A stretch of DNA of 64,000 nt from Candidatus Colwellbacteria bacterium (GTDB taxonomy: Bacteria; Patescibacteriota; Minisyncoccia; UBA6257; Colwellbacteraceae): the NCBI GenBank assembly GCA_016176505.1, contig JACOXB010000010.1, positions 27,021-91,020 on the forward strand, written 5' to 3'. Each line of letters begins with the position of its first letter. The stretch's first letter is position 1. The translations under genes and the position numbers were made by a program. This document shows positions 5,505 to 63,977 of the stretch, piece after piece. Under the pieces are notes generated by a model. It ran no database searches. It was not told the origin of the DNA and saw nothing but the letters and a program-made list of their open reading frames with translations.

Positions 5505-6089
5505 CTATTCGTCCACACCATAGCGTTTATAAGAATAAATCGGCTGATCGCCAAACCAATACTTAATTTCGTGCTCTGCTTCGGCCGCGGTTTCCGAAGC
5601 GTGCAGAATATTAGCGACCGCCCTTTGCTCAGCGTTCGCGACTGCTGGCGAATCAGCTGAGAAATCTCCCCGAATCGTTCCCATGTCAGCCAGATAAGGA
5701 ATGGTCGGACCAGCGATTTTCCGAACCATATCAACGGCGTGGACTCCTTGAACCACTATCCGAACTAAAGGAGCCGAAGTCATATAGTTTATAAGCCAAC
5801 CCCGGATCATTTCTCCGAGTTCGAGCGGTTCTTTCGTGCCCACAGACTCGATCGGATCAATGCCATACTTTTCATAAGTTACGAGGGTTTTGTGGCCCAA
5901 GCGCTCCTTCCAAGCTTTATCTTTAGGATAATGGCCATCAATTAATTCTTTAGTCGGCTCAAACATCTCCAGGGCAACAATCTTTAAATCGCGCTGTTCG
6001 AATCTCTTAATTACTTCTCCGATTAATCCCTTTTGGACTCCGTCGGGCTTAATAATAACTAAGGTTTTTTCTTCTTTAATCTCTTTCAC
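5505..6089 (-). CDS. ndk: Nucleoside diphosphate kinase (long form)
   Basis: The N-terminus TLVIIKPDGVQKGLIGEVIKRFE is the NDK signature. Confidence 0.85.
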   Translation of the reverse strand: MKEIKEEKTLVIIKPDGVQKGLIGEVIKRFEQRDLKIVALEMFEPTKELIDGHYPKDKAWKERLGHKTLVTYEKYGIDPIESVGTKEPLELGEMIRGWLINYMTSAPLVRIVVQGVHAVDMVRKIAGPTIPYLADMGTIRGDFSADSPAVANAEQRAVANILHASETAAEAEHEIKYWFGDQPIYSYKRYGVDE

Positions 6090-7480
6090 TTTTTCTTTTT
6101 GATTTCTATTCCTAATTCTTTTAATTGTTTTTCCTCGATCTCTGATGGCGCGCCAGTCATCAAATCCCGTCCGTCACCAGTTTTAGGAAAAGCCATTACC
6201 TCCCGCAGATTCGGTTCATTTAAGAGCGGGATAAGCATTCTGTCAAAGCCAATTGCAATCCCGCCGTGAGGCGGCACGCCGTAGCTAAAAGCCTCGAGCA
6301 TATGTTCAAATCGGCTTCTCCCTTCTTCTTTAGGAATGCCCACCAGCTCAAAGACCTTGGCCTGCACTTCAGGATCAGTAATCCGGATACTGCCGCCGGC
6401 AATCTCATAACCGTTTAAAACTAAATCGTGCTGCCAAGAGCGAACCTTAGCCGGATCTGAATCCAAAAGCGGAATATCGCTCGCTCGTGGCGCCGTAAAA
6501 ATGTGGTGATGAGGGTCCCAGCGTTTTTCCTCTTCGTTCCACTCAAACATGGGCCAACCAACAATAAAACAAAAAGCGAGTTCATTAGGATCTTCTTTAT
6601 TCTCACGTAAATCAGGTTTGTCAGCTTTGTACTTCGCCATTGCCTCATCGTAAGAAATCCTCGGAAATGGAACTTGGGTAATTCTCTTTTCCGGAAATAG
6701 TTTTCCTACCAGTTCAATAAACATTTCTTCAATCAAGGAGAGAATCTCCTCTTGGCTCATAAAAGAAACCTCGATATCAATTTGGGTGGCCTCGCCATAA
6801 GCCCGATCAGCCCGCGGATCCTCATCCCGGAACACCCGAGCCAACTGAAAGTAGCGTTCAAGCCCAGCCACCATTAGCATCTGTTTAAACTGCTGGGGTG
6901 ATTGGGGCAGAACATAAAATTTACCTGGATGAAGTCGAGCTGGCATCACAAACTCCCGGGCTCCTTCAGGCGTACCCTTGGTGATATAAGGGGTTTCGAT
7001 TTCAGTAAACCCCCAGTCACTCAAAAATTTTCGGACAAACTGAGCCGCTTGGTGACGAATGACTAAATTCCGCTTTAATCTTTGTCTTCTCAAATCAAGA
7101 TAACGATATTTAAGGCGGAGCTCCTCGTTTATTTCGTAGCCGTCGGTATCAAGCGGGAACGGTGGCGTCTCGGCTTTAGCGAGAACCTCGAGCTCGCTCA
7201 CACCAACTTCAAGATTGCCAGTCTCGAGATTCGGGTTTTTCATCTCTTCCGGCCGCTCGACTACTTTGCCCTTAATCTGAATTACCCATTCCGGACGCAG
7301 CTCATCAGCTTTTTTTCGAAGATTCTCGTCTTCACCCCGAAAAACCAGTTGAGCTAATCCTTCTTTGTCTCTCAAATCAATGAAAATTAATTTGCCGTGG
7401 TCGCGTCGGCTATCCACCCAGCCAGCCAGTTCCACCTCCTCGCCGACTTTCCCAAGAATCTCTATCGAATAAATCCGCAT
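6086..7480 (-). CDS. aspS: Class II aspartate--tRNA ligase (archaeal/AsnRS-like short type; probably non-discriminating, since gatB is present)
   Basis: N-terminal OB anticodon-binding fold (GWV..RRDHGKLIFIDLRD). Class II motifs FRDEDPRADR and GGSIR…GFDR. Confidence 0.8.
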   Translation of the reverse strand: MRIYSIEILGKVGEEVELAGWVDSRRDHGKLIFIDLRDKEGLAQLVFRGEDENLRKKADELRPEWVIQIKGKVVERPEEMKNPNLETGNLEVGVSELEVLAKAETPPFPLDTDGYEINEELRLKYRYLDLRRQRLKRNLVIRHQAAQFVRKFLSDWGFTEIETPYITKGTPEGAREFVMPARLHPGKFYVLPQSPQQFKQMLMVAGLERYFQLARVFRDEDPRADRAYGEATQIDIEVSFMSQEEILSLIEEMFIELVGKLFPEKRITQVPFPRISYDEAMAKYKADKPDLRENKEDPNELAFCFIVGWPMFEWNEEEKRWDPHHHIFTAPRASDIPLLDSDPAKVRSWQHDLVLNGYEIAGGSIRITDPEVQAKVFELVGIPKEEGRSRFEHMLEAFSYGVPPHGGIAIGFDRMLIPLLNEPNLREVMAFPKTGDGRDLMTGAPSEIEEKQLKELGIEIKKKK

Positions 7481-52244: not shown

Positions 52245-55200
52245 ATGGCGAAATTTGTTCATCTGCACACTCACTCTCACTACTCTCTGCTTGATGGTCT
52301 TTCGAAAGTCGGCCCCTTAGTAAAGAGAGCTAAAGAACTAGGGATGGAGGCCCTGGCCCTGACTGACCATGGCAATCTTTACGGTTCGGTTGAGTTTTAT
52401 AAAAAGGCTAAAGCGGCCGGGATCAAACCCATCATCGGCGTTGAAACTTATGTAGCTCGCCACTCTCGTTTATCTAAAGACCCGAAAGTAGATAGTGTTC
52501 GTTATCACCTGACTTTACTGGTTAAAAATAAAGAAGGCTATCGCAACCTAGTTCAGTTAATTACTAAATCGCACCTTGAAGGTTTTTATTACAAGCCAAG
52601 AATCGACAAGGAGCTTTTAGAAAAATATCGCGAAGGTTTGATTTGTCTTTCCGGCTGTTTTTCGGGAGAGGTGGGAAAACTTTTACGAGCCGGAAACAAA
52701 GCCGGAGCTGAAGAAGCGGTAAAATATTATCACAATCTTTTTGGAAAAATACAACATCCCTTTAGTCGCCACCCAAGATTCTCATTATTTAAATCGTGAG
52801 GACGCGCCGATTCACGAAATCCTTTTGGCGATCCAGACCAATAACCGGCTTGATGATGAGGATCGATTAACCTTTAAAGAGCACGATGCCTCTTTTCGCT
52901 CAGGCGAAGAGATGGCTGAAGTTTTCAAAGATTTACCCGAGGCAATCGAGAATACACTCCGCGTGGCGGAAAAATGCAATTTCGAGTTTGAGTTAGATAA
53001 AACCCATTTGCCAGTCTATCCCCTGCCCGAGGGTGAAACTAATAGCAATGTTTATTTACGACGCATAGCTCGCGAGGGTCTGCCAAAACGAGGACTTGGG
53101 GCTGATAAAAAAGCTCATGAACGGCTTGAATATGAACTTGGCGTGATTGAGACAACCGGCTTCGCCGACTACTTCCTGATTGTCCAGGACTTTGTGAACT
53201 GGGCTAAAAATCACGGCATTGCCGTTGGCCCGGGCCGAGGCTCAGCTGCCGGCAGTATTGTTTCTTATCTTTTAAATATCACTGATGTTGACCCATTAAA
53301 ATACGACCTGCTTTTTGAAAGATTTTTGAATCCGGAGCGAATCCAAATGCCGGACTTCGATCTTGATTTTGCCGACCACCGTAGGGACGAAGTTTTGGGA
53401 TATTTAAGAGATAAATACGGCAATGAGCATGTGGCTCAAATCATTACCTTCGGCACCATGGCCGCGAGAGCCGCGGTTCGCGATGCTGGCCGAGCTATGG
53501 GGATACCCTATTCTTTTTGCGACCGGGTGGCCAAGCTAATTCCTTTTATGGCCAACTTCGGCAACGAAGGCATTTCGGCATATCTAGAAAAATCACCAGA
53601 ACTTAGAGCGCTTCATGATTCTGATCCCCAAGTTAAAAATCTTTTGGAAATTGCCGAGAGACTGGAAGGTGTGGCTCGTCATGCTTCGGTCCATGCCTGC
53701 GGCGTTGTTATCACTGAGGAACCAACCACCCAGTACCTCGCTCTCCAGCGAGCGCCCCAAGATGAAAATACGATTATCACCCAAATTGAAATGCATGGAG
53801 TTGAAGACCTGGGCCTTTGGAAAATTGATCTTCTCGGGCTCCGAAACCTGACTATTATCGAGGAAACTTTAAGGCTAATTAAAGAACTTGATGGGGAGGA
53901 GATAAATATTGCTGATTTACCGCTCGATGATAAAAAAACTTTTGAATTGCTCCGCGCCGCTGAGACCACTGGTATTTTTCAGTTTGAATCTTCGGGCATG
54001 AAACGCTACATGAAAGACATAAAACCAACTAGTCTTGAAGATTTAGCCGCTCTTGTAGCCCTATACCGCCCTGGCCCGATTGAACTTATCCCAAGCTACA
54101 TTGCTCGAAAGCACGGTAAAGAAAAAGTAACTTATCTCCATCCCAAACTCGAGCCAATTATGGAAAAAACTTACGGCATCGGCATCTATCAGGAACAAAT
54201 GATGAGAATTGCGACTGACCTCGGGGGCTATACCCTGCCCGAGGCCGACACCCTAAGAAAAGCGATTGGTAAGAAAATCAAAGCTCTTCTTGATGCCCAA
54301 AAAGAAAAACTGATCAACGGGATGGTTAAAAACGGCATTGACATGAGAACAGCGGGGAAAATTTGGAGTCTCTTCCCGCCTTTTGCCCGTTATGGCTTCA
54401 ACCGCTCTCATGCTGTCTGCTACGCCTTGATTGGCTATCGGACCGCTTATTTGAAAAGTCATTACCCGGTTGAATTTATGACCGCCCTTTTAAACAACGC
54501 TTCGGGCGATGTGGAACGAATTTCTTTCTTAATTGACGAGGCCAAAAGAATGAAAATCGAGGTGCTTGCGCCTGATGTTAATAAAAGTGTCAGTGATTTT
54601 GTGCCTGAAGAAGTCAATATTCGTTTCGGCCTTCTCGCGATTAAAAATGTGGGTGCCAATATCACTCAGGCGATTGTTGAGGAACGATTAAGAAACGGGC
54701 CCTACGAAAGCCTGACTGGTTTCATTTTGAGAGCCAGACCCTTTGGCATGAATAAAAAAGTGGTTGAATCGCTTGCTAAAAGCGGCGCCCTTGATTCGCT
54801 CGGAGTTGAGAGAATGACGATTTTAAATAACACCGATGCCCTCCTCAGGGCAGCTGGCGGCACGAAAGCCGAAGCCACGAATGGCCAAAATAATCTTTTT
54901 GGCGCGAATCACAAATTTGAAATCAAACTCGTTCCCGCCCCCGAGCCGGCTTCGAGAACCACTAAACTTGGCTGGGAAAAAGAATTAATCGGACTTTATG
55001 TGACCGAGCACCCGCTTAAAGAATACTGGGAAAAACAAAATCCGAACGAGAACCAAACTATTAAAGGGGTTGTTGAAAAAGCGATTGAAGGGCGGGCGGC
55101 TAAGATTTTTGGTATTATTTCTAAAGTCCATCGGGTCCAGACGAAAACGGGGCGGATTATGTTTTTTGCCAAAATCGAGGATCCGAGTGGTACTATTGAA

Positions 55201-55341
55201 GTATTAGTTTTCCCTGACACCCTGGGTAAGGATCCGAGCCTGTGGCAGGAAAATAATGTAGTCGAAATTAATGGTCGAGTATCGAAAAGAGACGGCGAAC
55301 CAAAGTTAATATGCGCGGAGGCAAAAGCGATCAGTCTTTAG
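52245..55341 (+). CDS. dnaE: DNA polymerase III alpha subunit (DnaE), reading frame interrupted by a +1 shift near 52745-52760 (ORFs 52245..52799 and 52741..55341)
   Basis: PHP domain (HLHTHSHYSLLDG) in the first ORF. PLVATQDSHYL, the polymerase palm/fingers and the C-terminal OB domain are in the second. The shift coincides with a GGAAAAATAC run. Confidence 0.85.
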
Positions 55342-55419: not shown

Positions 55420-57036
55420 TTGCCGCGGAACCTAACTCCGGATGATCTTAAGGGATTTGAAAAACGGATGCGGGAAATTATTAAGCAAGGGCTCGCTTTT
55501 CGCGGTAAAAAAGTGACCTCAACCGAGGCTAGAAAAACTTTCAAAGACCAGCCCTTTAAGCTCGAATTGATTAAAGATTTTGCTCGCGAGAAAAAACAGC
55601 TTTCGATTTATAAAACGGGCGATGTCTTTACTGATCTTTGCCGGGGCGGCCATGTTAAAAATACGAAAGAAATCAATCCTGATGCTTTTCGACTAACGAG
55701 CATTGCCGGCGCTTACTGGAAAGGCAGTGAAAAAAATCCTCAGCTTCAGCGGGTTTACGGCGTGGCTTTTAAAACTAAGAGGGAGCTTGAAGTATATCTT
55801 TTACAACAAGAGGAGGCTAAAAAACGGGACCATCGAAAACTCGGCAAAGAGTTAGATTTATTTACCTTTTCTGATTTAGTCGGCCCAGGCTTACCGCTTT
55901 ATACGCCTAGGGGGACAATCATAATTAACGAACTGTATCGGGAGCTTTTAAGAATCAGTAAGGATTACGGCGTCCAAGAGGTCAAGATTCCCCATATGGC
56001 TAAGATCGAGCTCTACGAGACATCTGGACACGCCGAGAAATTCAAAGATGAGCTTTTTAAGGTTAAAAGTCATTATGATATTGAGTTCGTATTAAAGCCG
56101 GTTAATTGCCCGCATCACACCCAAATTTACGCCTCAAGACCCCGGAGTTATCGGGATCTGCCGCTGCGCTTCATCGAGTCCACTGCCCAGCACCGGGATG
56201 AAAAACCGGGCGAGATCGGCGGTCTTTCAAGGACTCGTTCGTTTACGGTCGATGATGGCCATACTTTTTGCCGAGTTGATCAGATTAAAGAAGAGGCCAA
56301 AAACACCTGTCGTATAATCGAGAGATTTTATAAAGCCTTGGGCTTGTGGGGTGATCATTGGGTTTCTCTTTCGGTAAGAGATCCAAAAACGCCAGAAAAG
56401 TATATTGGTATAAAAGCAGATTGGGATAAAGCAGAAAAAATGATCCAAGAAGTTTCTAAAGAATTAAAACTTGGAGGGAAAGTAGTTAAAGGAGAGGCGG
56501 CTATTTATGGTCCTAAAATCGATTTTATGTTTAAAGACGCTCTGGGTAAAGAAATACAGTTGGCGACTGTTCAAATCGATTTTGCTATGCCTAAAAGATT
56601 CGGCCTAACCTATACCACTGCCGGAGGAAAGCAAGAAACGCCGGTGATGCTCCATCGAGCGATTCTGGGATCTTACGAAAGATTTTTAGCGATTCTCCTC
56701 GAACATTATGCCGGCGCTTTTCCGCTTTGGCTTGCGCCAGTTCAGGTGGCCATATTGCCGATCAGTCAGAAATTCACGAGTTATGCCGAGAAAGTGGCGA
56801 AAGCTTTGCGCGAGAAAAATATCCGAGTAGAAATATCTGATGCCAATGAAACCATCGGCAAGCAAATTCGTGAAGCTGAACTTCAGAAAATCCCCTATCT
56901 CCTGGTGGTCGGGGAAAAAGAAATAAAATCTAATTCGGTCGCAGTGCGAAAACGCGGTAAAGGAGATATCGGCGTGGAAAAACTTTCGAAATTCGTTGAA
57001 GAAATCAGTAAAGAAATTAACGAAAGAAAGGCCTAA
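55420..57036 (+). CDS. thrS: Threonine--tRNA ligase, catalytic core + anticodon-binding domain only (no N-terminal TGS/editing domains). An in-frame ThrRS-like sequence (GIGPAIENGFYYDF) extends upstream to 55342, immediately after the dnaE stop, so the true start is uncertain.
   Basis: RDHRKLG, the class II motifs, CPHH and the C-terminal anticodon-binding domain. Alignment by eye to E. coli ThrRS starts at about residue 245. Confidence 0.8.
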   Translation: MPRNLTPDDLKGFEKRMREIIKQGLAFRGKKVTSTEARKTFKDQPFKLELIKDFAREKKQLSIYKTGDVFTDLCRGGHVKNTKEINPDAFRLTSIAGAYWKGSEKNPQLQRVYGVAFKTKRELEVYLLQQEEAKKRDHRKLGKELDLFTFSDLVGPGLPLYTPRGTIIINELYRELLRISKDYGVQEVKIPHMAKIELYETSGHAEKFKDELFKVKSHYDIEFVLKPVNCPHHTQIYASRPRSYRDLPLRFIESTAQHRDEKPGEIGGLSRTRSFTVDDGHTFCRVDQIKEEAKNTCRIIERFYKALGLWGDHWVSLSVRDPKTPEKYIGIKADWDKAEKMIQEVSKELKLGGKVVKGEAAIYGPKIDFMFKDALGKEIQLATVQIDFAMPKRFGLTYTTAGGKQETPVMLHRAILGSYERFLAILLEHYAGAFPLWLAPVQVAILPISQKFTSYAEKVAKALREKNIRVEISDANETIGKQIREAELQKIPYLLVVGEKEIKSNSVAVRKRGKGDIGVEKLSKFVEEISKEINERKA

Positions 57037-57925
57037 AATCATTGTTATTCTGGGGCCGAATGCTTCGGGAAAGTCGGCCCTAGGGGTTGGGTTAGCCAAA
57101 AAATTTTCCGGCGAGATAATTTCAGCTGACTCCCGCCAAGTCTACCGCGGCCTTGATATCGGCACTGGAAAAATCACTAAACGCGAGATGGCCGAAATTC
57201 GCCACCACCTACTCGATGTTGCCTCGCCTAAACGGGTTTTTACTGTTGCCCAGTACCAAAAACTGGCCCAAGCCGTGCTCGAAGACATTCTTCGTCGAGG
57301 TAAGCTGCCGATCATAGTCGGCGGCACTGGACTTTATATCGACGCCCTGCTTTATAACACTCCATTTCCGGCCGTTCCGCCCAATCCGAAACTGCGTCAA
57401 AAACTTGAAAAAGAATCCAGTGAATCGCTTTTCAAAAAACTAGAAAGACTTGACCCGGACCGAGCCGCGAACATTGACCCCAAGAATAAGCGCCGCCTGG
57501 TGCGCGCTCTCGAAATAGTGCTGGCTACCGCCAAGCCCGTCCCTGCCCTTATTCGCGCGAATAAGGGTATAAACGATTTCAGGGTTTTAAAAATCGGGAT
57601 CGCCTTGCCGGAAGAAAAACTTAAAGATGGAATCGCTCGCCGGCTCGAGCAAAGAATAAAAACAGGGATGATCCGTGAAGTCAAAAAGCTGCGTGAAAGA
57701 GGTTTAACCTGGAAGCGCCTTGAGGAATTAGGGCTTGAATATCGTTATACCGCGCGACATCTCCAAGGACTTTTGAGTCGCGAAGAAATGATTCAAAAAC
57801 TCGAAATTGAAATCTGGCGTTATGCCAAACGCCAGATGATTTGGTTTAAACGCGATAAAAATATTATTTGGCTAAGCGATCTGAAAAAAGCTTTTCCAAT
57901 AATCCAGGATTTCCTCGGCCGCTAA
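56996..57925 (+). CDS. miaA: tRNA dimethylallyltransferase MiaA (start uncertain; ORF overlaps thrS 3' end)
   Basis: P-loop GPNASGKSALG, and …SADSRQVYRGLDIGTGK…. Confidence 0.85.
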   Translation: MKKSVKKLTKERPKIIVILGPNASGKSALGVGLAKKFSGEIISADSRQVYRGLDIGTGKITKREMAEIRHHLLDVASPKRVFTVAQYQKLAQAVLEDILRRGKLPIIVGGTGLYIDALLYNTPFPAVPPNPKLRQKLEKESSESLFKKLERLDPDRAANIDPKNKRRLVRALEIVLATAKPVPALIRANKGINDFRVLKIGIALPEEKLKDGIARRLEQRIKTGMIREVKKLRERGLTWKRLEELGLEYRYTARHLQGLLSREEMIQKLEIEIWRYAKRQMIWFKRDKNIIWLSDLKKAFPIIQDFLGR

Positions 57926-59297
57926 GCTTGCGCATGGCCTCGCCTACGAGAAATTTAAGAGCATTGCTTTTCCCTTTTTTATAATCGCTTACAGCCTGTT
58001 CGTTTGCCTTAATCACTTCTTTGACCGCCTCGAGCAGCGCTTCTTCATCAGCAATCGGCGTTAATGTTTTCTCTTTAATAATTTGATCTGGATCAAGACC
58101 GCTTACAAACATCTCGCCCAGAACCTTCTTGCCGATAACACTAGAGATACTTCCTCCAGAGATTAGGTTCGTCATCTCGGCGAAGTTCTCGGGGGATATT
58201 TTGAGTTCGTTGAATCCAATACCGGATTTATTCATTAAACCAGTAAGGTCGGTTGTTAGCGAGTTGACTAGGGTCTGGATGGCCTTTTCTTTCTTCGGTT
58301 CATCGATAATGGTGTCCAGCTCTGAAACGCTTTCTTCAAAGTATTCGGCGAGTTTTGGATCACTAACTAAAACCTCGATTTGACCTTGAGGCAGTTTGTA
58401 TTCTTCTAAAAATCGATTGCGTCTAGCCTCGGGTAATTCTGGAATTGATAATTTTAATTCTTCGAGGTTAATCTCTCCTTTGGCGAAATCGAGGGGCGGT
58501 AAATCAGGCTCGGGGAAGTAGCGGTAATCGTGCGATGACTCCTTACTCCTTTGCGATTTAGTCGCCCCCATAACACTCCCCCTGGTTTCCTGAATCACTT
58601 TTTCGCCCTGTTCTAATACTCCTGTTTGTCTTTTTATTTCATATTCAATCGCATTTTTAACCTCTTTGAATGAGTTGATATTCTTGACCTCAACTTTAGT
58701 GCCGAGTTCCTTGCTACCCTCGGGAGCGACAGAAACATTGGCCTCAACCCGCATTTGGCCTTTTTCCATATCAGCATCGGAGATACCAAGATAGCGAATG
58801 ATTAACTGAAGTTCTTTAGCAAAGCGGAAAGCCTCGTCGGCTGATTTAATCACCGGTTTTGTCACAAGCTCCATTAAAGGAATGCCGGCCCGGTTAAAAT
58901 CAACTAAACTTCCGTCCTCGCCGTGGAGCAACCTAGCCGTGTCTTCTTCCAGATGGATCCGCTCAAGCTCTATCCCCAAAAGTTCGCCGCCTTTCACAAG
59001 CGGATATTCGTATTGGGAAATTTGATAACCCTTGGGCAAGTCTGGATAAAAATAACTTTTCCGGTCAAAGTGCGAGTTTTTTAAAATCTCGCCGTTAAGC
59101 GCTAGGCCCAAGCGAATGACGCTCTTCACCGCCTCGACATTGATTACCGGCAGAGTCCCTGGATGAGCCAGACAAATTGGGCAAACATTCACATTAGGCC
59201 TAGTTTCGGTGGGGTTATTCAACGAACGACAGAACATCTTGGTCCGCGTTTTTAACTCCGCATGGACCTCAAGCCCTATAGTCGGTGTATACTCCAT
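57864..59297 (-). CDS. gatB: Asp/Glu-tRNA(Asn/Gln) amidotransferase subunit B
   Basis: [17 protein letters not shown]…CPICLAHPG… is the GatB N-terminal signature. A C-terminal GatB/YqeY domain is present. Confidence 0.9.
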   Translation of the reverse strand: MEYTPTIGLEVHAELKTRTKMFCRSLNNPTETRPNVNVCPICLAHPGTLPVINVEAVKSVIRLGLALNGEILKNSHFDRKSYFYPDLPKGYQISQYEYPLVKGGELLGIELERIHLEEDTARLLHGEDGSLVDFNRAGIPLMELVTKPVIKSADEAFRFAKELQLIIRYLGISDADMEKGQMRVEANVSVAPEGSKELGTKVEVKNINSFKEVKNAIEYEIKRQTGVLEQGEKVIQETRGSVMGATKSQRSKESSHDYRYFPEPDLPPLDFAKGEINLEELKLSIPELPEARRNRFLEEYKLPQGQIEVLVSDPKLAEYFEESVSELDTIIDEPKKEKAIQTLVNSLTTDLTGLMNKSGIGFNELKISPENFAEMTNLISGGSISSVIGKKVLGEMFVSGLDPDQIIKEKTLTPIADEEALLEAVKEVIKANEQAVSDYKKGKSNALKFLVGEAMRKLSGRGNPGLLEKLFSDRLAK

Positions 59298-60492: not shown

Positions 60493-62409
60493 CTAAACAT
60501 CAAGGTTTTTAACAGAGGCGGCATGAAGCTGGATAAAGTGCTTCCTCGGGCCAACCTCATCCCCCATTAGAAGATCGAAAAGCCGATCAGCCTCTTTAGC
60601 GTCGTCAACTGTAACCAGCTTGAGTCTCCGATCAGCCGGATTCATAGTAGTTTCCCAAAGCTGATCCGGATTCATCTCGCCTAATCCTTTATAGCGCTGA
60701 ATATTAACCGGCTCACCAAGTTCAGCCGCGATTTTATCTTTTTCAAGATCGCTGTGGGCATATTTCCCCACCTTCCCTTTCTCGACTCGGTAAAGCGGCG
60801 GGAGGGCAATGTAGAGATGGCCATCCTCAATCACTTTAGGGAAATGACGGAAGAAAAGAGTTAAAAGCAAAGTTCTAATATGGGCGCCGTCAACATCGGC
60901 ATCAGTCATGATAATAATTTTGTGATAGCGGAGTTTGGCCACATCAAACTCATCCGCAATCGCTGTTCCAAGAGCTAAAACCAGAGCGGCTAATTCTTTA
61001 TTAGCTAGAAGTTTATCAATCCTGGCCCGTTCAGCATTTAGAATCTTTCCTCGTAAGGGCAGAATCGCCTGGATTCTTCTGTCCCGGCCCTGCTTAGCTG
61101 ATCCGCCGGCCGAAGGTCCCTCGACAATAAAAAGTTCGGCTTCTTCAGCTTTGCGAGTTTGGCAATCAGCTAATTTACCAGGCAGAGACAGGCCCTCAAG
61201 CACGCCCTTTCGAAGAACGCTTTCTTTAGCCGCCTTCGCAGCCAGACGGGCTCGGGCAGCTAAGAGACACTTATCAAGGATAGCTCGGGCATCAGCCGGC
61301 TTTTTCTCAAGAAATTCCCGAAGAGCAACGCCGATCACAGTTTCGGTAGCGCTTCTCGCCTCAGGATTACCAAGTCTTGCTTTTGTCTGACCCTCAAACT
61401 GAGGTTCTTTTAGTTTTATCGAGATAATCGCGGTTAGCCCCTCGCGCACATCATCGCCAGTCAGGTTGTCATCGTCTTTTTTAAAATAGCCATTGGCCCG
61501 GGCGTAATCATTAAGCGCCCGGGTTAAGGCTGAGCGGAAACCAGTTGAGTGCATGCCTCCGTCACTGGTATGAATATTGTTGGCAAAACTTAATTCAGCT
61601 ATTTCATTGCCCTCGTTGTAAGAAAGGGCGGCCTCAACCTCGATCCCCTGGCTTTCTCGATGAACATAAAAAATATTATCATGGACTCGCTTCTCACCAT
61701 CCTCGTTTAAATAGTCAATGAACGAAAGTAAGCCGCCATCAAATTGATATGCAGTGTAGTGAGGCGCACCCCGTCTCTCGTCTATAAGAACAATTCGCAG
61801 GCCTTTGGTTAAATAGGCCTGCTCCCGAAAGTGTTCGAGAATTTGCTTTCGGTCAAATTCGATTTTCGAGAATATCTGCTCATCAGGGATAAAAGTAATT
61901 TTAGTTCCATTCCGTTCACAGTGGCCGTTTTTCTTAACTTTGGTTTTAGCTTTTCCCCGTTCGTACTCTTGCTCATATTTGGCGCCGTCACGACAAACTT
62001 CAGCCTTAAGCCAGGCTGAGAGGGCGTTCACGACCGAGACGCCCACACCGTGAAGACCGCCGGAAACTTTGTAAGATTCGCCGCCGAATTTACCCCCGGC
62101 ATGGAGGGTGGTCATGACCGTTTCGAGAGCTGATTTCTTGGTTTGCTTATGAATATCAACCGGGATACCCCGGCCATCATCTTCCACGCTCACCCGATTA
62201 TCCTTAAACAGGCGGACCTCAATATTTTTAGCATAACCGGCCATAGCCTCATCAATCGAGTTATCAACCACTTCCCAAATCAAATGATGCAGGCCGCTCG
62301 GTCCGGTTGAACCAATATACATGCCTGGCCGTTTGCGGACCGGCTCTAGGCCCTCAAGAACATAAATATCCTTGGCTGTGTATGTGGGATTTTCCTTAGC
62401 CATCATCAA
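60493..62409 (-). CDS. gyrB: DNA gyrase subunit B (short form, no large insert)
   Basis: GHKL ATPase motifs (EVVDNSIDE, GLHGVG), a Toprim domain (…EGDSAGG…) and the C-terminal tail. Confidence 0.85.
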   Translation of the reverse strand: MMMAKENPTYTAKDIYVLEGLEPVRKRPGMYIGSTGPSGLHHLIWEVVDNSIDEAMAGYAKNIEVRLFKDNRVSVEDDGRGIPVDIHKQTKKSALETVMTTLHAGGKFGGESYKVSGGLHGVGVSVVNALSAWLKAEVCRDGAKYEQEYERGKAKTKVKKNGHCERNGTKITFIPDEQIFSKIEFDRKQILEHFREQAYLTKGLRIVLIDERRGAPHYTAYQFDGGLLSFIDYLNEDGEKRVHDNIFYVHRESQGIEVEAALSYNEGNEIAELSFANNIHTSDGGMHSTGFRSALTRALNDYARANGYFKKDDDNLTGDDVREGLTAIISIKLKEPQFEGQTKARLGNPEARSATETVIGVALREFLEKKPADARAILDKCLLAARARLAAKAAKESVLRKGVLEGLSLPGKLADCQTRKAEEAELFIVEGPSAGGSAKQGRDRRIQAILPLRGKILNAERARIDKLLANKELAALVLALGTAIADEFDVAKLRYHKIIIMTDADVDGAHIRTLLLTLFFRHFPKVIEDGHLYIALPPLYRVEKGKVGKYAHSDLEKDKIAAELGEPVNIQRYKGLGEMNPDQLWETTMNPADRRLKLVTVDDAKEADRLFDLLMGDEVGPRKHFIQLHAASVKNLDV

Positions 62410-62534
62410 GAAAGACCCCTAAAGGCGGTCTTTTTTACCTCTTAATTTTACCTAAAATCAGACCCGGACTCAAGCTAAAAAAGGGCCGGTTTAGGGCTTG
62501 AAATAAGGGGATTGGCGCCTTAAACTAAAAAACT

Positions 62535-63659
62535 ATGGACATAGTTATACCCCGCGACGAGGAGGAGGCGTTAATAGAAAAGTTGAAGCAGCGCGAAGAC
62601 ACTGAAGCCAAGCGGATGCTCCGATATCTGGCAATGCCGGACCTCTCGCGCACTCCCGGGAGCCCGCTCCAAGAAATCGTAGCTAGGGCAAAGAACGCCC
62701 GCAGTCTCCAAGGCTTCGACGTTATTAATGTACCGGAAATTGTACCAACACACATTCTTTTTGATCTTTTTAATATGCCTCCCGGTCATCCAGCCCGCAG
62801 TAAATCAGACACCTATTATGTAGATGATAACCATGTTCTGCGGACTCACGACACAGTATTCTGGTATTACTACCTCAACCACCCGGAGATTAAAAAACGC
62901 ATTCGGAATAAAGAGACCTTGGGGACCATGTGCTACGGCAAGGTTTACCGAAAAGACGAAATTGATCGGACGCACATGAACGTCTTCCATCAATTCGGCG
63001 CTTGGCTCATCGCGCCGGACGAAAAGCAGGTCCTCGCAAGCGATGACCTAAAAGAAGCTCTTTCCGACATTGCCACCCATGTTTTTGGCGCCAAGTACCG
63101 TTTTTACGAACACCAGTTTCCATACACGGATCCCAGCTACGAAATGGAAGCTGAAATTAAGGGCAAGTGGATTGAAATGGTGGGTTCCGGCATGGTACGT
63201 AAAACTGTTTTAGCTAACATGGGTTTGACTGGCTACAATGGCTGGGCTTTTGGCTTCGGTCTCGAACGATTGGCAATTGCTTCTATGGATCTACCAGATA
63301 TTCGCTTACTCTGGTCTAAGGATCCGAGGGTTCTAAAACAACTTAAGCTTGGTCACAAGTTTGAAGAGGTCAGTAAGTATCCGCCGATTATAAGAGATAT
63401 TTCTTTTGCTGTAGGCAAAGAGTTTGTGCCAAATGATTATTTCGACTTGGTACGGGAGATGGCCGGAGATCTAGTCGAGCAAGTGGAGCTTATAGATAAG
63501 TATGAGGATGAATCAAAATTCGGAAAGGATAAGATCAGCTACGCCTATAGGCTAACTTACAGAAGCCTGGAGAGAACCCTCACGAACGAAGAAGTAGATA
63601 AACTTCATAAAACACTTGAAGAAAAGACCGTATCTGTCTTCAAGGCGGTTGTGAGATAG
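62535..63659 (+). CDS. pheS: Phenylalanine--tRNA ligase alpha-type catalytic core fused to a C-terminal FDX-ACB anticodon-binding domain (mitochondrial-like single-chain architecture)
   Basis: PheS class II motifs (GHPARSKSDTYY…LRTHDT, FPYTDPSYEMEAE, GWAFGFGLERLA). The ~95-aa C-terminal extension YPPIIRDISFAV…ISYAYRLTYRSLERTLTNEEVDKLH…FKAVVR matches the ferredoxin-fold anticodon-binding domain normally found at the C-terminus of PheT and of mitochondrial PheRS. No pheT follows. Confidence 0.75.
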   Translation: MDIVIPRDEEEALIEKLKQREDTEAKRMLRYLAMPDLSRTPGSPLQEIVARAKNARSLQGFDVINVPEIVPTHILFDLFNMPPGHPARSKSDTYYVDDNHVLRTHDTVFWYYYLNHPEIKKRIRNKETLGTMCYGKVYRKDEIDRTHMNVFHQFGAWLIAPDEKQVLASDDLKEALSDIATHVFGAKYRFYEHQFPYTDPSYEMEAEIKGKWIEMVGSGMVRKTVLANMGLTGYNGWAFGFGLERLAIASMDLPDIRLLWSKDPRVLKQLKLGHKFEEVSKYPPIIRDISFAVGKEFVPNDYFDLVREMAGDLVEQVELIDKYEDESKFGKDKISYAYRLTYRSLERTLTNEEVDKLHKTLEEKTVSVFKAVVR

Positions 63660-63758
63660 TTTTTGACAACTCGAATAATCGAGCTAGAATATTGGGGGTA
63701 AACAGCGGGGAAGTGTAACAGTTGCACGTGAGCCTCATAAGCTCAAGGTAGTGGGTGC

Positions 63759-63822
63759 AATTCCCGCCCCCGCAACATGTTTGGGCGGCGGTCGGGGGAG
63801 AAAAATTCCCGCCCCCGCAACA
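63759..63822 (+). repeat. Two 19-bp direct repeats (AATTCCCGCCCCCGCAACA at 63759 and 63804), followed by two strong hairpins (63830-63857; 63866-63896), upstream of tRNA-Met
   Basis: Read directly. The first hairpin (GTCGGCGTGGCGC…GCGCCGAC) reuses the tRNA-Met acceptor sequence GTCGGCG/CGCCGAC. Confidence 0.55.
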
Positions 63823-63902: not shown

Positions 63903-63977
63903 GTCGGCGTAGCTCAGTGGTAGAGCGAGGGACTCATAAACCCTAGGTCGGAGGTTCAATCCCTCCCGCCGACACCA
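63903..63977 (+). tRNA. tRNA-Met (anticodon CAT; initiator, elongator or tRNA-Ile2 not distinguishable), CCA encoded
   Basis: Hand-folded: GTCGGCG / TA GCTC AGTGGTA GAGC G / AGGGA CTCATAA ACCCT / AGGTC / GGAGG TTCAATC CCTCC / CGCCGAC A CCA. Confidence 0.75.

Follow-up and report, generated by a model that had tools for sequence, protein, structure and literature searches.

Introduction

Can a bacterium charge its tRNA-Phe with a single polypeptide? Reviews describe phenylalanyl-tRNA synthetase (PheRS) as a heterotetramer in bacteria and restrict the monomeric form to mitochondria and plastids (PMC3275996, PMC4494062), and AARS Online groups 'PheRS-M' with FARS2. The question is raised by an open reading frame (ORF) at positions 62535..63659, on the plus strand of a 64,000-nucleotide stretch of a Candidatus Colwellbacteria contig (JACOXB010000010.1), which was analyzed at its full length and is called the window below. 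An earlier reading of the letters alone, referred to here as the original prediction, had seen in this ORF a PheS catalytic core fused to PheT's anticodon-binding domain. Our full-text literature searches for a monomeric PheRS from bacteria in general, or from the candidate phyla radiation (CPR), found no paper describing one, and Meheust 2019, Gile 2015, Kantor 2013 and Moreira 2021 contain nothing on the subject. After comparing the gene with its relatives and modeling its product, we predict that it encodes a monomeric, mitochondrial-type and editing-free PheRS, which probably serves the organism as its housekeeping enzyme. The architecture is already known; what is new is its bacterial host, the scale of the radiation that carries it, a remodeled amino-acid pocket and a leftover B2 gene in some lineages.

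Results

A PheS core and an anticodon-binding domain on one chain

The gene is complete, with an ATG start, 374 codons and a stop, and it lies at exactly the coordinates predicted, with class II motifs 2 and 3 present. Two Pfam domains were found in its product, all parts of which are encoded on the plus strand. Residues 1-42 (62535..62660) form an N-terminal segment with two short helices (residues 8-18 and 23-33) in an AlphaFold2 model. This segment replaces the coiled-coil of about 90 aa found in canonical PheS, and its profile matches relatives in the clade of CPR bacteria and Oligoflexia only. The class IIc catalytic core occupies residues 43-269 (62661..63341; PF01409, tRNA-synt_2d, E 6.5e-52, profile positions 17-245 of 246). 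In the alignment blocks, its motif 2 reads GKVYRKDEIDRTHMNVFHQFG, its motif 3 reads GWAFGFGLERLA and the loop of the Phe pocket reads FPYTDPS. The core is 33% identical to E. coli PheS over 233 aa, and the motif 2 Arg (KVYR), the motif 3 Arg (LERL), FHQ, FP[Y]T and the pocket residue Ala238 are invariant in the family.

Directly after the PheS-type C-terminal motif ...DPRVLKQL, an inter-domain linker, or hinge, spans residues 270-279 (63342..63371). E. coli PheS terminates in ...DLRFLKQFK, whereas human mitochondrial PheRS runs on beyond the equivalent motif. No regular secondary structure was predicted by AlphaFold2 for residues 268-284 or so, the hinge included. Residues 280-374 (63372..63656) form an FDX-ACB (B8-type) anticodon-binding domain (PF03147, E 8.9e-22, profile positions 1-94 of 94), and this region also matches positions 691-798 of TIGR00472, pheT_bact. 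Matches to both Pfam profiles, together with the peptides that had been quoted from the sequence, bear out the claim of a PheS core and an FDX-ACB domain on one chain. The B3/B4 editing domain is absent from the 374-aa protein, also as foreseen.

Structural comparisons led to the same arrangement. The best sequence match of the protein in the PDB is human mitochondrial PheRS (2e-61), in two stretches that together span both domains; canonical PheS chains match residues 44-271 or thereabouts and PheT chains only residues 264-363, approximately. The AlphaFold2 model, built on an alignment of 42 family members, has a mean pLDDT (per-residue confidence) of 90.5 and a pTM (predicted template-modeling score) of 0.86. 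In a Foldseek comparison, its best fold match was the closed form of human mitochondrial PheRS (3cmq), with a template-modeling score (TM) of 0.81 and a root-mean-square deviation of 3.4 over about 390 columns, at full length. The modeling that had been suggested as a check of the domain arrangement thus returned that of the closed mitochondrial enzyme. The open, tRNA-bound form (3tup) fits less well (TM 0.60), and canonical PheS chains cover the core alone (TM 0.54). The identical protein in NCBI carries the name 'hypothetical protein HYS89_02435' and comes from a Candidatus Colwellbacteria metagenome-assembled genome (MAG).

A conserved chromosomal gene of Parcubacteria

A protein search, confined to the 8,000 candidates with the most words in common with the query, returned 7,444 homologues at E <= 1e-10. 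The best 120 of these more than 7,000 homologues are 358-405 aa long (most about 375), all contain both Pfam domains and are 70-77% identical; the named sources among them are Doudna-, Nomura- and Liptonbacteria and other Parcubacteria. GTDB was then scanned, at one genome per species, with the family peptide patterns HMNVFHQ and R[TP]HDTVFW. At least 599 stretches matched, and at least 564 species were confirmed as relatives, in Parcubacteria. The 80 loci kept also span Yanofsky-, Giovannoni-, Wolfe-, Zambryski-, Taylor- and Sungbacteria, 'Paceibacterota' and 'Minisyncoccia', and protein identity across the Parcubacterial family is 65-77%. A bacterial chromosomal example had been expected to be noteworthy: the gene is both bacterial and chromosomal, but it is no isolated case, being a standard gene of a large radiation.

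The gene is strongly conserved in sequence and in place. When the window was compared with two relatives, PheRS was 71-72% identical, compared with 65% for NusG, 63% for L11, 57-60% for GyrB and 50% for GatB. The immediate neighbor is gyrB in 72 of the 80 species: in 45 it is on the same strand and downstream, and in 27 it is divergent and upstream, as in the window; secE, nusG and rplK lie past gyrB in the relatives. Such conservation and synteny are characteristic of a housekeeping gene that is essential and inherited vertically, not of contamination or a mobile accessory gene.

The closest characterized relatives of the protein are eukaryotic and giant-virus proteins, which could suggest that eukaryotic or viral DNA had been mis-binned into a bacterial metagenome assembly. 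However, the same contig carries bacterial gyrB, secE, nusG, rplK, gatB and tRNAs, the synteny recurs in the 72 of 80 independent assemblies, one of them a 1.21-Mb contig, the longest encountered, and the Parcubacterial proteins form a clade of their own (100% bootstrap) outside the eukaryotic and viral group. Eukaryotic or viral contamination is refuted by the synteny, and we give mis-binning practically no credence.

Family membership and phylogeny

An exhaustive HMMER search of 1.84 billion cluster representatives yielded 209 proteins at E <= 1e-30, and among the 150 of these 209 matches listed, most full-length proteins consist of the core plus FDX-ACB. The nearest are a metagenomic sister group (P0121 and P0122) at 55-59% identity. 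A distant member of the clade, of 456 aa (P0131; locus L007, 9463-10833), is encoded next to an F-type ATP synthase operon by a gene with 13 in-frame UGA codons, of which several fall at positions that are Gly in relatives; going by the UGA-recoding lineages known to us, we take it to belong to a CPR lineage of the SR1/Gracilibacteria type. The remaining relatives comprise an Oligoflexia MAG protein, a large group of proteins about 345 aa in length, with the PheRS of Tupanvirus among them, on contigs of up to 1.5 Mb, which we read as giant viruses, and the eukaryotic organellar enzymes, many of which have an insertion splitting the core. Two plasmid proteins from Azotobacter and Glutamicibacter complete the set, and these are true members of the NCBIfam family 'PheS-related mystery ligase SrmL' (NF051887; 515-524 bits). 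The architecture had been known to the original prediction from organelles, a restriction that does not hold, as giant viruses (Tupanvirus) and the plasmid-borne SrmL proteins share it. Giant-virus copies appear only as database annotations.

None of the curated models claims the window protein. It scores 231.6 bits against SrmL (cut-off 300), 164.7 bits against canonical PheS (TIGR00468; cut-off 237.45), with no match to PF02912, and 73.9 bits against PheT (TIGR00472; cut-off 402.65), where only the last 108 or so profile positions (B8) match. The sister protein P0121 and the giant-virus forms pass the cut-off of pheS_mito (TIGR00469), and the window protein falls below it. Scores below the SrmL, pheS_mito and pheS cut-offs fit with the annotation pipeline PGAP having left the protein unnamed.

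These scores also bear on the possibility that the protein is an accessory PheS-like paralogue, a specialized or non-translational ligase of the SrmL kind, while a canonical pheS-pheT elsewhere in the genome performs housekeeping charging. That NCBIfam holds a bacterial family of the same architecture, to whose model the protein aligns with 231.6 bits, would favor such a role, as would the failure to reach the pheS_mito cut-off and the loss of an acidic residue in motif 2. However, the protein stays below the SrmL cut-off and is only 27-30% identical to true SrmL. Its gene is chromosomal and single-copy, lies off mobile DNA and is fixed beside gyrB and ribosomal-protein genes in those 72 of 80 species. 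It is more conserved than NusG, L11 and GyrB, which would be unusual for an accessory gene in small genomes, and those of Parcubacteria are mostly under about 1.2 Mb. Moreover, no B3/B4, B5 or B6/B7 sequence was found in the 1.4 Mb sampled from the family. We therefore consider an accessory ligase unlikely.

A provisional neighbor-joining tree was built from the catalytic core only (200 columns, 100 bootstraps), with seven canonical PheS from six phyla as the outgroup. In the phylogeny, which had been proposed as a check, the protein groups with the fused forms, and the canonical PheS stand apart from all of these with 98% bootstrap. CPR bacteria, the Oligoflexia MAG, plasmid SrmL, giant viruses and eukaryotic organelles make up the fused side. 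Bootstrap values are 100% for Parcubacteria, 97% for Parcubacteria plus P0121, 66% for the clade of CPR plus Oligoflexia and 47% for eukaryotes plus giant viruses. Identity of the core is 35-42% to the organellar type but 33% to E. coli PheS, and that of the B8 domain is 38-41% to eukaryotic mitochondrial-type domains but 26% to the B8 domain of E. coli PheT. Since the tree splits in this way and both domains resemble the organellar type more than they do E. coli, the fusion would seem to have a single origin. In this tree, whose method and sampling are too light to give the direction of transfer, the Parcubacterial genes do not fall inside the eukaryotes.

What remains of PheT

We searched for the missing subunit with E. 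coli PheS and PheT (tblastn) and with a PheT profile from seven taxa (E. coli, Fusobacterium, Limosilactobacillus, Mesomycoplasma, Subdoligranulum, Nonomuraea and Neisseria), and no second PheS or PheT homologue was found in the 64-kb window. PheT and PheS profiles were also run against six-frame translations of the window and of 82 Parcubacterial loci with flanks of at most 10 kb, 1.40 Mb in total. No pheT was found within 10 kb of the gene in the 82 related loci. The canonical PheS profile gave one match per source, at positions 100-400 only, so the N-terminal coiled-coil is missing. The PheT profile matched at positions 700-800 (B8) in 83 sources, always inside the synthetase gene, and at positions 0-200 (B1/B2) in 20 loci; for positions 200-700, which hold the B3/B4 editing domain, B5 and B6/B7, there was no match in the 1.40 Mb from 83 genomes.

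The matches at positions 0-200 come from a separate ORF of about 140 aa with a tRNA_bind (B2) domain, which is 35-41% identical to E. coli PheT residues 41-150 or so. In 19 of the 79 species with enough upstream sequence (L009-L065), this ORF immediately precedes the synthetase gene, and it also occurs in L001 (9543-9974) and in a JGI contig. No tRNA_bind (B2) gene was found in the 64-kb window. The B2 family has 715 database matches, the best 120 of which are 58-72% identical and come from Doudnabacteria and other Parcubacteria. In JGI/IMG, the protein is annotated as 'phenylalanyl-tRNA synthetase beta chain', a label owing to which KO-based tables wrongly show PheT as present. The beta subunit looks to have been dismantled in Parcubacteria: B8 is fused to the alpha subunit, some lineages keep B2 as a mini-gene, and the sampled DNA yielded nothing of the other domains. 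Many CPR PheRS beta subunits are without B2 (Mukai 2017, PMC5370408).

The 140-aa protein could instead be a vestigial beta subunit needed for productive tRNA binding, in which case the gene in the window would encode the large subunit of a minimal two-protein PheRS. Its position immediately before the synthetase gene in about one in four species, the conservation of the B2 family itself and the JGI label all point in this direction. However, B2 is not beside the gene in 60 of the 79 species, and the 715 B2-like database matches compare with more than 7,000 for the synthetase. In the canonical enzyme, B2 is reportedly dispensable for aminoacylation, according to the title of Roy and Ibba (2006), cited in PMC5370408, and human mitochondrial PheRS works without B2 (PMC3275996). 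We regard a two-protein enzyme as quite unlikely and favor a synthetase that would be active as a monomer.

An altered amino-acid pocket

An alignment of the family with 64 other fused forms and E. coli PheS revealed a pocket that is uniform within the family and different outside it. All 195 of the 195 members that are complete at these sites have H105, D106, T107, W110, Q153, G155, F195, Y197 and A238. The Asp106 codon, GAC (62850..62852, plus strand, as are the other three codons), lies in R-T-H-D-T, where other homologues have Thr, Met or another non-acidic residue. Trp110 (TGG, 62862..62864) stands at the position of Gln124 of the human mitochondrial enzyme, as judged from a HMMER alignment to 8p8x/3cmq and from MAFFT, and Gly155 (GGC, 62997..62999), at the motif 2 end FHQF-G, stands at the position of its Glu159. 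Tyr197 (TAC, 63123..63125) gives F-P-Y instead of F-P-F in the aromatic pair of the Phe pocket. The Parcubacterial clade is thus marked by F-H-Q-[F/I/M]-G and R-T-H-D-T-V-F-W. At position 155, Glu or Asp is found in the seven canonical PheS, in both SrmL and in nearly all other fused forms (F-H-Q-x-[E/D] in the canonical and nearly all fused forms). Most canonical PheS and other fused forms have the triplet H-[T/M]-[S/T], and the third residue after it is Gln in canonical PheS and many fused forms and variable in the remaining fused forms. The sister group (P0121) retains T106 and D155; no intermediate combination was seen, and Asp106 and Gly155 are strictly coupled.

The two replaced contacts have a known role. 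In a crystal of human mitochondrial PheRS, the meta-hydroxyl of meta-tyrosine (m-Tyr) hydrogen-bonds to Gln124 NE2 and Glu159 OE2 (Klipcan et al. 2010, PMC3275996), and this enzyme charges tRNA-Phe with m-Tyr at an affinity only five-fold below that for Phe (PMC3275996). In the Parcubacterial pocket, both polar contacts to a ring hydroxyl are gone, and the elements that define Phe are retained, namely Phe195, an aromatic residue at 197, Thr198, Ala238 and a Gly-rich motif 3. These replacements suggest that selection on the editing-free enzyme favored a pocket that is more hydrophobic and discriminates better, Asp106 being a second-site change coupled to it.

An altered substrate would be the less likely alternative to improved fidelity. 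The substitutions at 106, 110, 155 and 197 might have changed the specificity so that an amino acid other than Phe is charged: Asp106, Trp110 and Gly155 differ from canonical PheS and nearly all other fused forms, residues 110 and 155 line the ring pocket, and the strict coupling of Asp106 with Gly155 might also point that way. However, the Phe-defining residues are kept. In eukaryotic cytosolic PheRS, the second residue of the aromatic pair is normally Tyr; the change is invariant there and has been described as conservative (PMC3275996). Conservation is also complete for the FDX-ACB domain, whose task is to read the anticodon of tRNA-Phe. No cell can do without a PheRS, and we saw no other candidate for one. 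We think it very unlikely that the enzyme charges another amino acid.

Flanking DNA and other features of the window

Upstream of the gene, a promoter-like site, TTGAAA-17-TAAACT (62498..62526, plus strand), ends 9 nt before the ATG; it scored 9 of 12 in the consensus scan, which found 4 sites in the region against 1.9 expected, and it is a weak site to be taken as a lead only. The divergent upstream neighbor is gyrB (60493..62409, minus strand), recognized from the ORFs and from Pfam labels in relatives. Beyond it on the minus strand are secE, nusG, rplK and gatB, the last at 57864-59297 and consistent with indirect Asn/Gln charging.

The original prediction had placed repeats and tRNA-Met, not pheT, downstream. 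There is no pheT, but two tRNA(CAU) genes are present rather than one, and the repeats are a copy of a tRNA 3' end. The first gene, an initiator-like tRNA(CAU) directly after the PheRS gene (63704-63775, plus strand; Rfam, 48.5 bits), is preceded by a promoter-like site, TTGACA-16-TAGAAT (63663-63690, plus strand), scoring 11 of 12. It was missed by ARAGORN, probably because its T-loop, UGCAAUU, has G at position 55. It has a 1:72 mismatch, A1 x A72 in the window; in the orthologous tRNAs that follow the PheRS gene in further Colwellbacteria (L048, L068, L086), the mismatch is C1 x A72, as is classic for initiators. The 19-nt 3' end of this tRNA, AATTCCCGCCCCCGCAACA, occurs at 63759-63777 and again at 63804-63822, 26 nt downstream. 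The second tRNA(CAU) lies at 63903-63977. No tRNA-Phe was found near the PheRS gene in 55 loci.

Two further synthetases of the window are short. The threonyl-tRNA synthetase (ThrRS) ORF (55420-57036, plus strand; 538 aa) contains tRNA_SAD (Pfam, residues 62-113), the class II core and an anticodon-binding domain. No TGS domain was found in it with Pfam, and the N-terminal half of the editing domain would not fit in. An upstream extension of the ORF is impossible, as dnaE ends 79 nt before it. This is possibly a second synthetase without proofreading, and it hints that proofreading loss may be a wider theme in the genome. The aspartyl-tRNA synthetase (AspRS; 6086-7480, minus strand) is short, at 463-464 aa, with an OB anticodon domain and a class II core only. 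Typical bacterial AspRS has a large insertion domain, which seems to be missing here.

The dnaE gene itself is split into overlapping ORFs in different frames (52245-52799 and 52741-55341, plus strand), the first with the PHP domain alone and the second with the domains NTPase, finger, HHH and OB. A frameshift, an error in sequencing or a gene that is genuinely in two parts might each account for this. Finally, a region at about 20.3-22.9 kb is GC-rich (0.53-0.57 against about 0.46 elsewhere) and has a strong positive AT skew. Over roughly 20300-22900, long ORFs on both strands have low-complexity Arg/Ser/Leu/Gly translations, in which no genes were recognized (without a Pfam search of them), and tandem repeats of 36 nt, degenerate in sequence, lie at 22583-22658 and 22776-22861, with no Rfam matches.

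Discussion

Overall, we read the gene as that of a monomeric housekeeping PheRS, and several points weigh against this reading. The protein reaches 237.5 bits against the pheS_mito model, whose curated cut-off is 258.35. The near-universal acidic residue of motif 2 is lost, which could mean altered substrate chemistry, not better fidelity. NCBI labels a related bacterial family, SrmL, a 'mystery ligase', so a protein of this fused, PheS-like kind is not necessarily a PheRS. The 1.4 Mb searched over 83 genomes amount to about two genome equivalents and cannot prove that a canonical operon is absent elsewhere; if such an operon were randomly placed in each genome, zero matches would still be obtained about one time in five. 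Some other CPR lineages do possess a PheRS beta subunit (PMC5370408). Notwithstanding these points, we consider that the gene is probably the organism's housekeeping PheRS and presumably its only one.

A putative mechanism can be provided for such an enzyme. The PheS-type class II core would make phenylalanyl-adenylate and transfer Phe to tRNA-Phe, and the B8/FDX-ACB domain, which in canonical enzymes stands at the end of the beta subunit, would read the GAA anticodon from its place after the short hinge. By analogy with human mitochondrial PheRS, the resting enzyme may be closed, and the anticodon-binding domain may swing open on the hinge to admit the tRNA. The enzyme would work without B1 and B3 to B7, the B3/B4 editing site included, so that Tyr-tRNA-Phe or m-Tyr-tRNA-Phe could not be hydrolyzed in cis. 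The pocket formed by Trp110, Gly155 and Asp106 may be less welcoming to hydroxylated Phe analogues, and selectivity at the synthetic site would then substitute for editing. In about a quarter of related species, the stand-alone B2 protein, which is not in the window, might act as a helper in trans.

We also speculate on the history of the gene. The fused monomeric PheRS may be an old bacterial invention, ancestral to a large part of the CPR (Parcubacteria and the UGA-recoding lineage of the SR1/Gracilibacteria type), and FARS2 and the giant-virus copies may descend from such a gene. Parcubacteria would then have lost both polar contacts to m-Tyr's meta-hydroxyl, with Trp110 replacing Gln and Gly155 replacing Glu, and the acidic group would have moved to position 106. 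Taken as one proposal, this scenario is tentative, and we would rather doubt it than rely on it. If true, it would provide a natural case of post-transfer editing replaced by a redesigned synthetic site.

A bacterial radiation using the monomer would change the picture of PheRS as a heterotetramer in bacteria, and the question of the origin of mitochondrial PheRS would gain a bacterial sister group that is free-living or episymbiotic. Hundreds of bacterial species probably translate Phe codons without any PheRS editing domain, and the three invariant pocket substitutions are a directly testable candidate mechanism of fidelity. As the synthetase is a 'hypothetical protein' in NCBI and the B2 protein a 'beta chain' in IMG, automated tables of completeness and metabolism are misleading for these genomes.

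Comparison with known systems

The catalytic core and the anticodon-binding domain are homologous to those of canonical (alpha-beta)2 PheRS, where they are on separate chains, encoded by pheS and pheT. In contrast to this enzyme, the window protein lacks the N-terminal coiled-coil, B1, the B3/B4 editing domain, B5 and B6/B7. In four canonical operons (E. coli, Limosilactobacillus, Mesomycoplasma and Fusobacterium), pheT directly follows pheS, which is not the case at the window gene. The PheRS of Mycoplasma, a bacterium with a reduced genome and without PheRS proofreading, is naturally defective in editing through point changes in the editing site. However, Mycoplasma retains the full pheS-pheT operon, as seen in Mesomycoplasma, whereas the window protein is without the whole editing domain.

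Among the fused forms, SrmL is likewise bacterial and lies inside the fused-form clade, and the window protein aligns over the whole 349-position SrmL profile. However, true SrmL members keep the acidic motif 2 residue (PHQLD), which the window protein does not. The two SrmL genes, annotated as hypothetical proteins, lie on plasmids of Azotobacter (L089, 5815-6927) and Glutamicibacter (L090, 5830-6948), genera that presumably have a canonical PheRS. They are surrounded by insertion sequence elements or transposases, an HNH endonuclease and a VapC/Phd toxin-antitoxin system on one plasmid and lie beside a chloramphenicol efflux gene on the other. The PheRS of giant viruses (Tupanvirus soda lake) and its metagenomic relatives of about 345 aa likewise consist of core and FDX-ACB, in about 340-375 aa and with no presequence. 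These forms score above the pheS_mito cut-off, retain HTS..Q as well as FHQxE/D and group with eukaryotes in the tree, none of which applies to the window protein.

The closest likeness in architecture is to the organellar monomeric PheRS (human FARS2, yeast MSF1; PheRS-M; TIGR00469), in which core, hinge and B8/FDX-ACB follow one another on the same chain. The fold and the closed arrangement are the same, the editing domain is likewise absent, and the two domains are joined at the same place, after ...R-x-L-K-Q. In contrast to the organellar enzymes, to which its product is only about 33% identical overall, the window gene lies on a bacterial chromosome beside gyrB. Its protein has neither a presequence nor the core-splitting insertion of many eukaryotic forms, and it is distinguished by a clade-specific two-helix N-terminus, by Trp and Gly in place of Gln124 and Glu159, and by a new Asp106.

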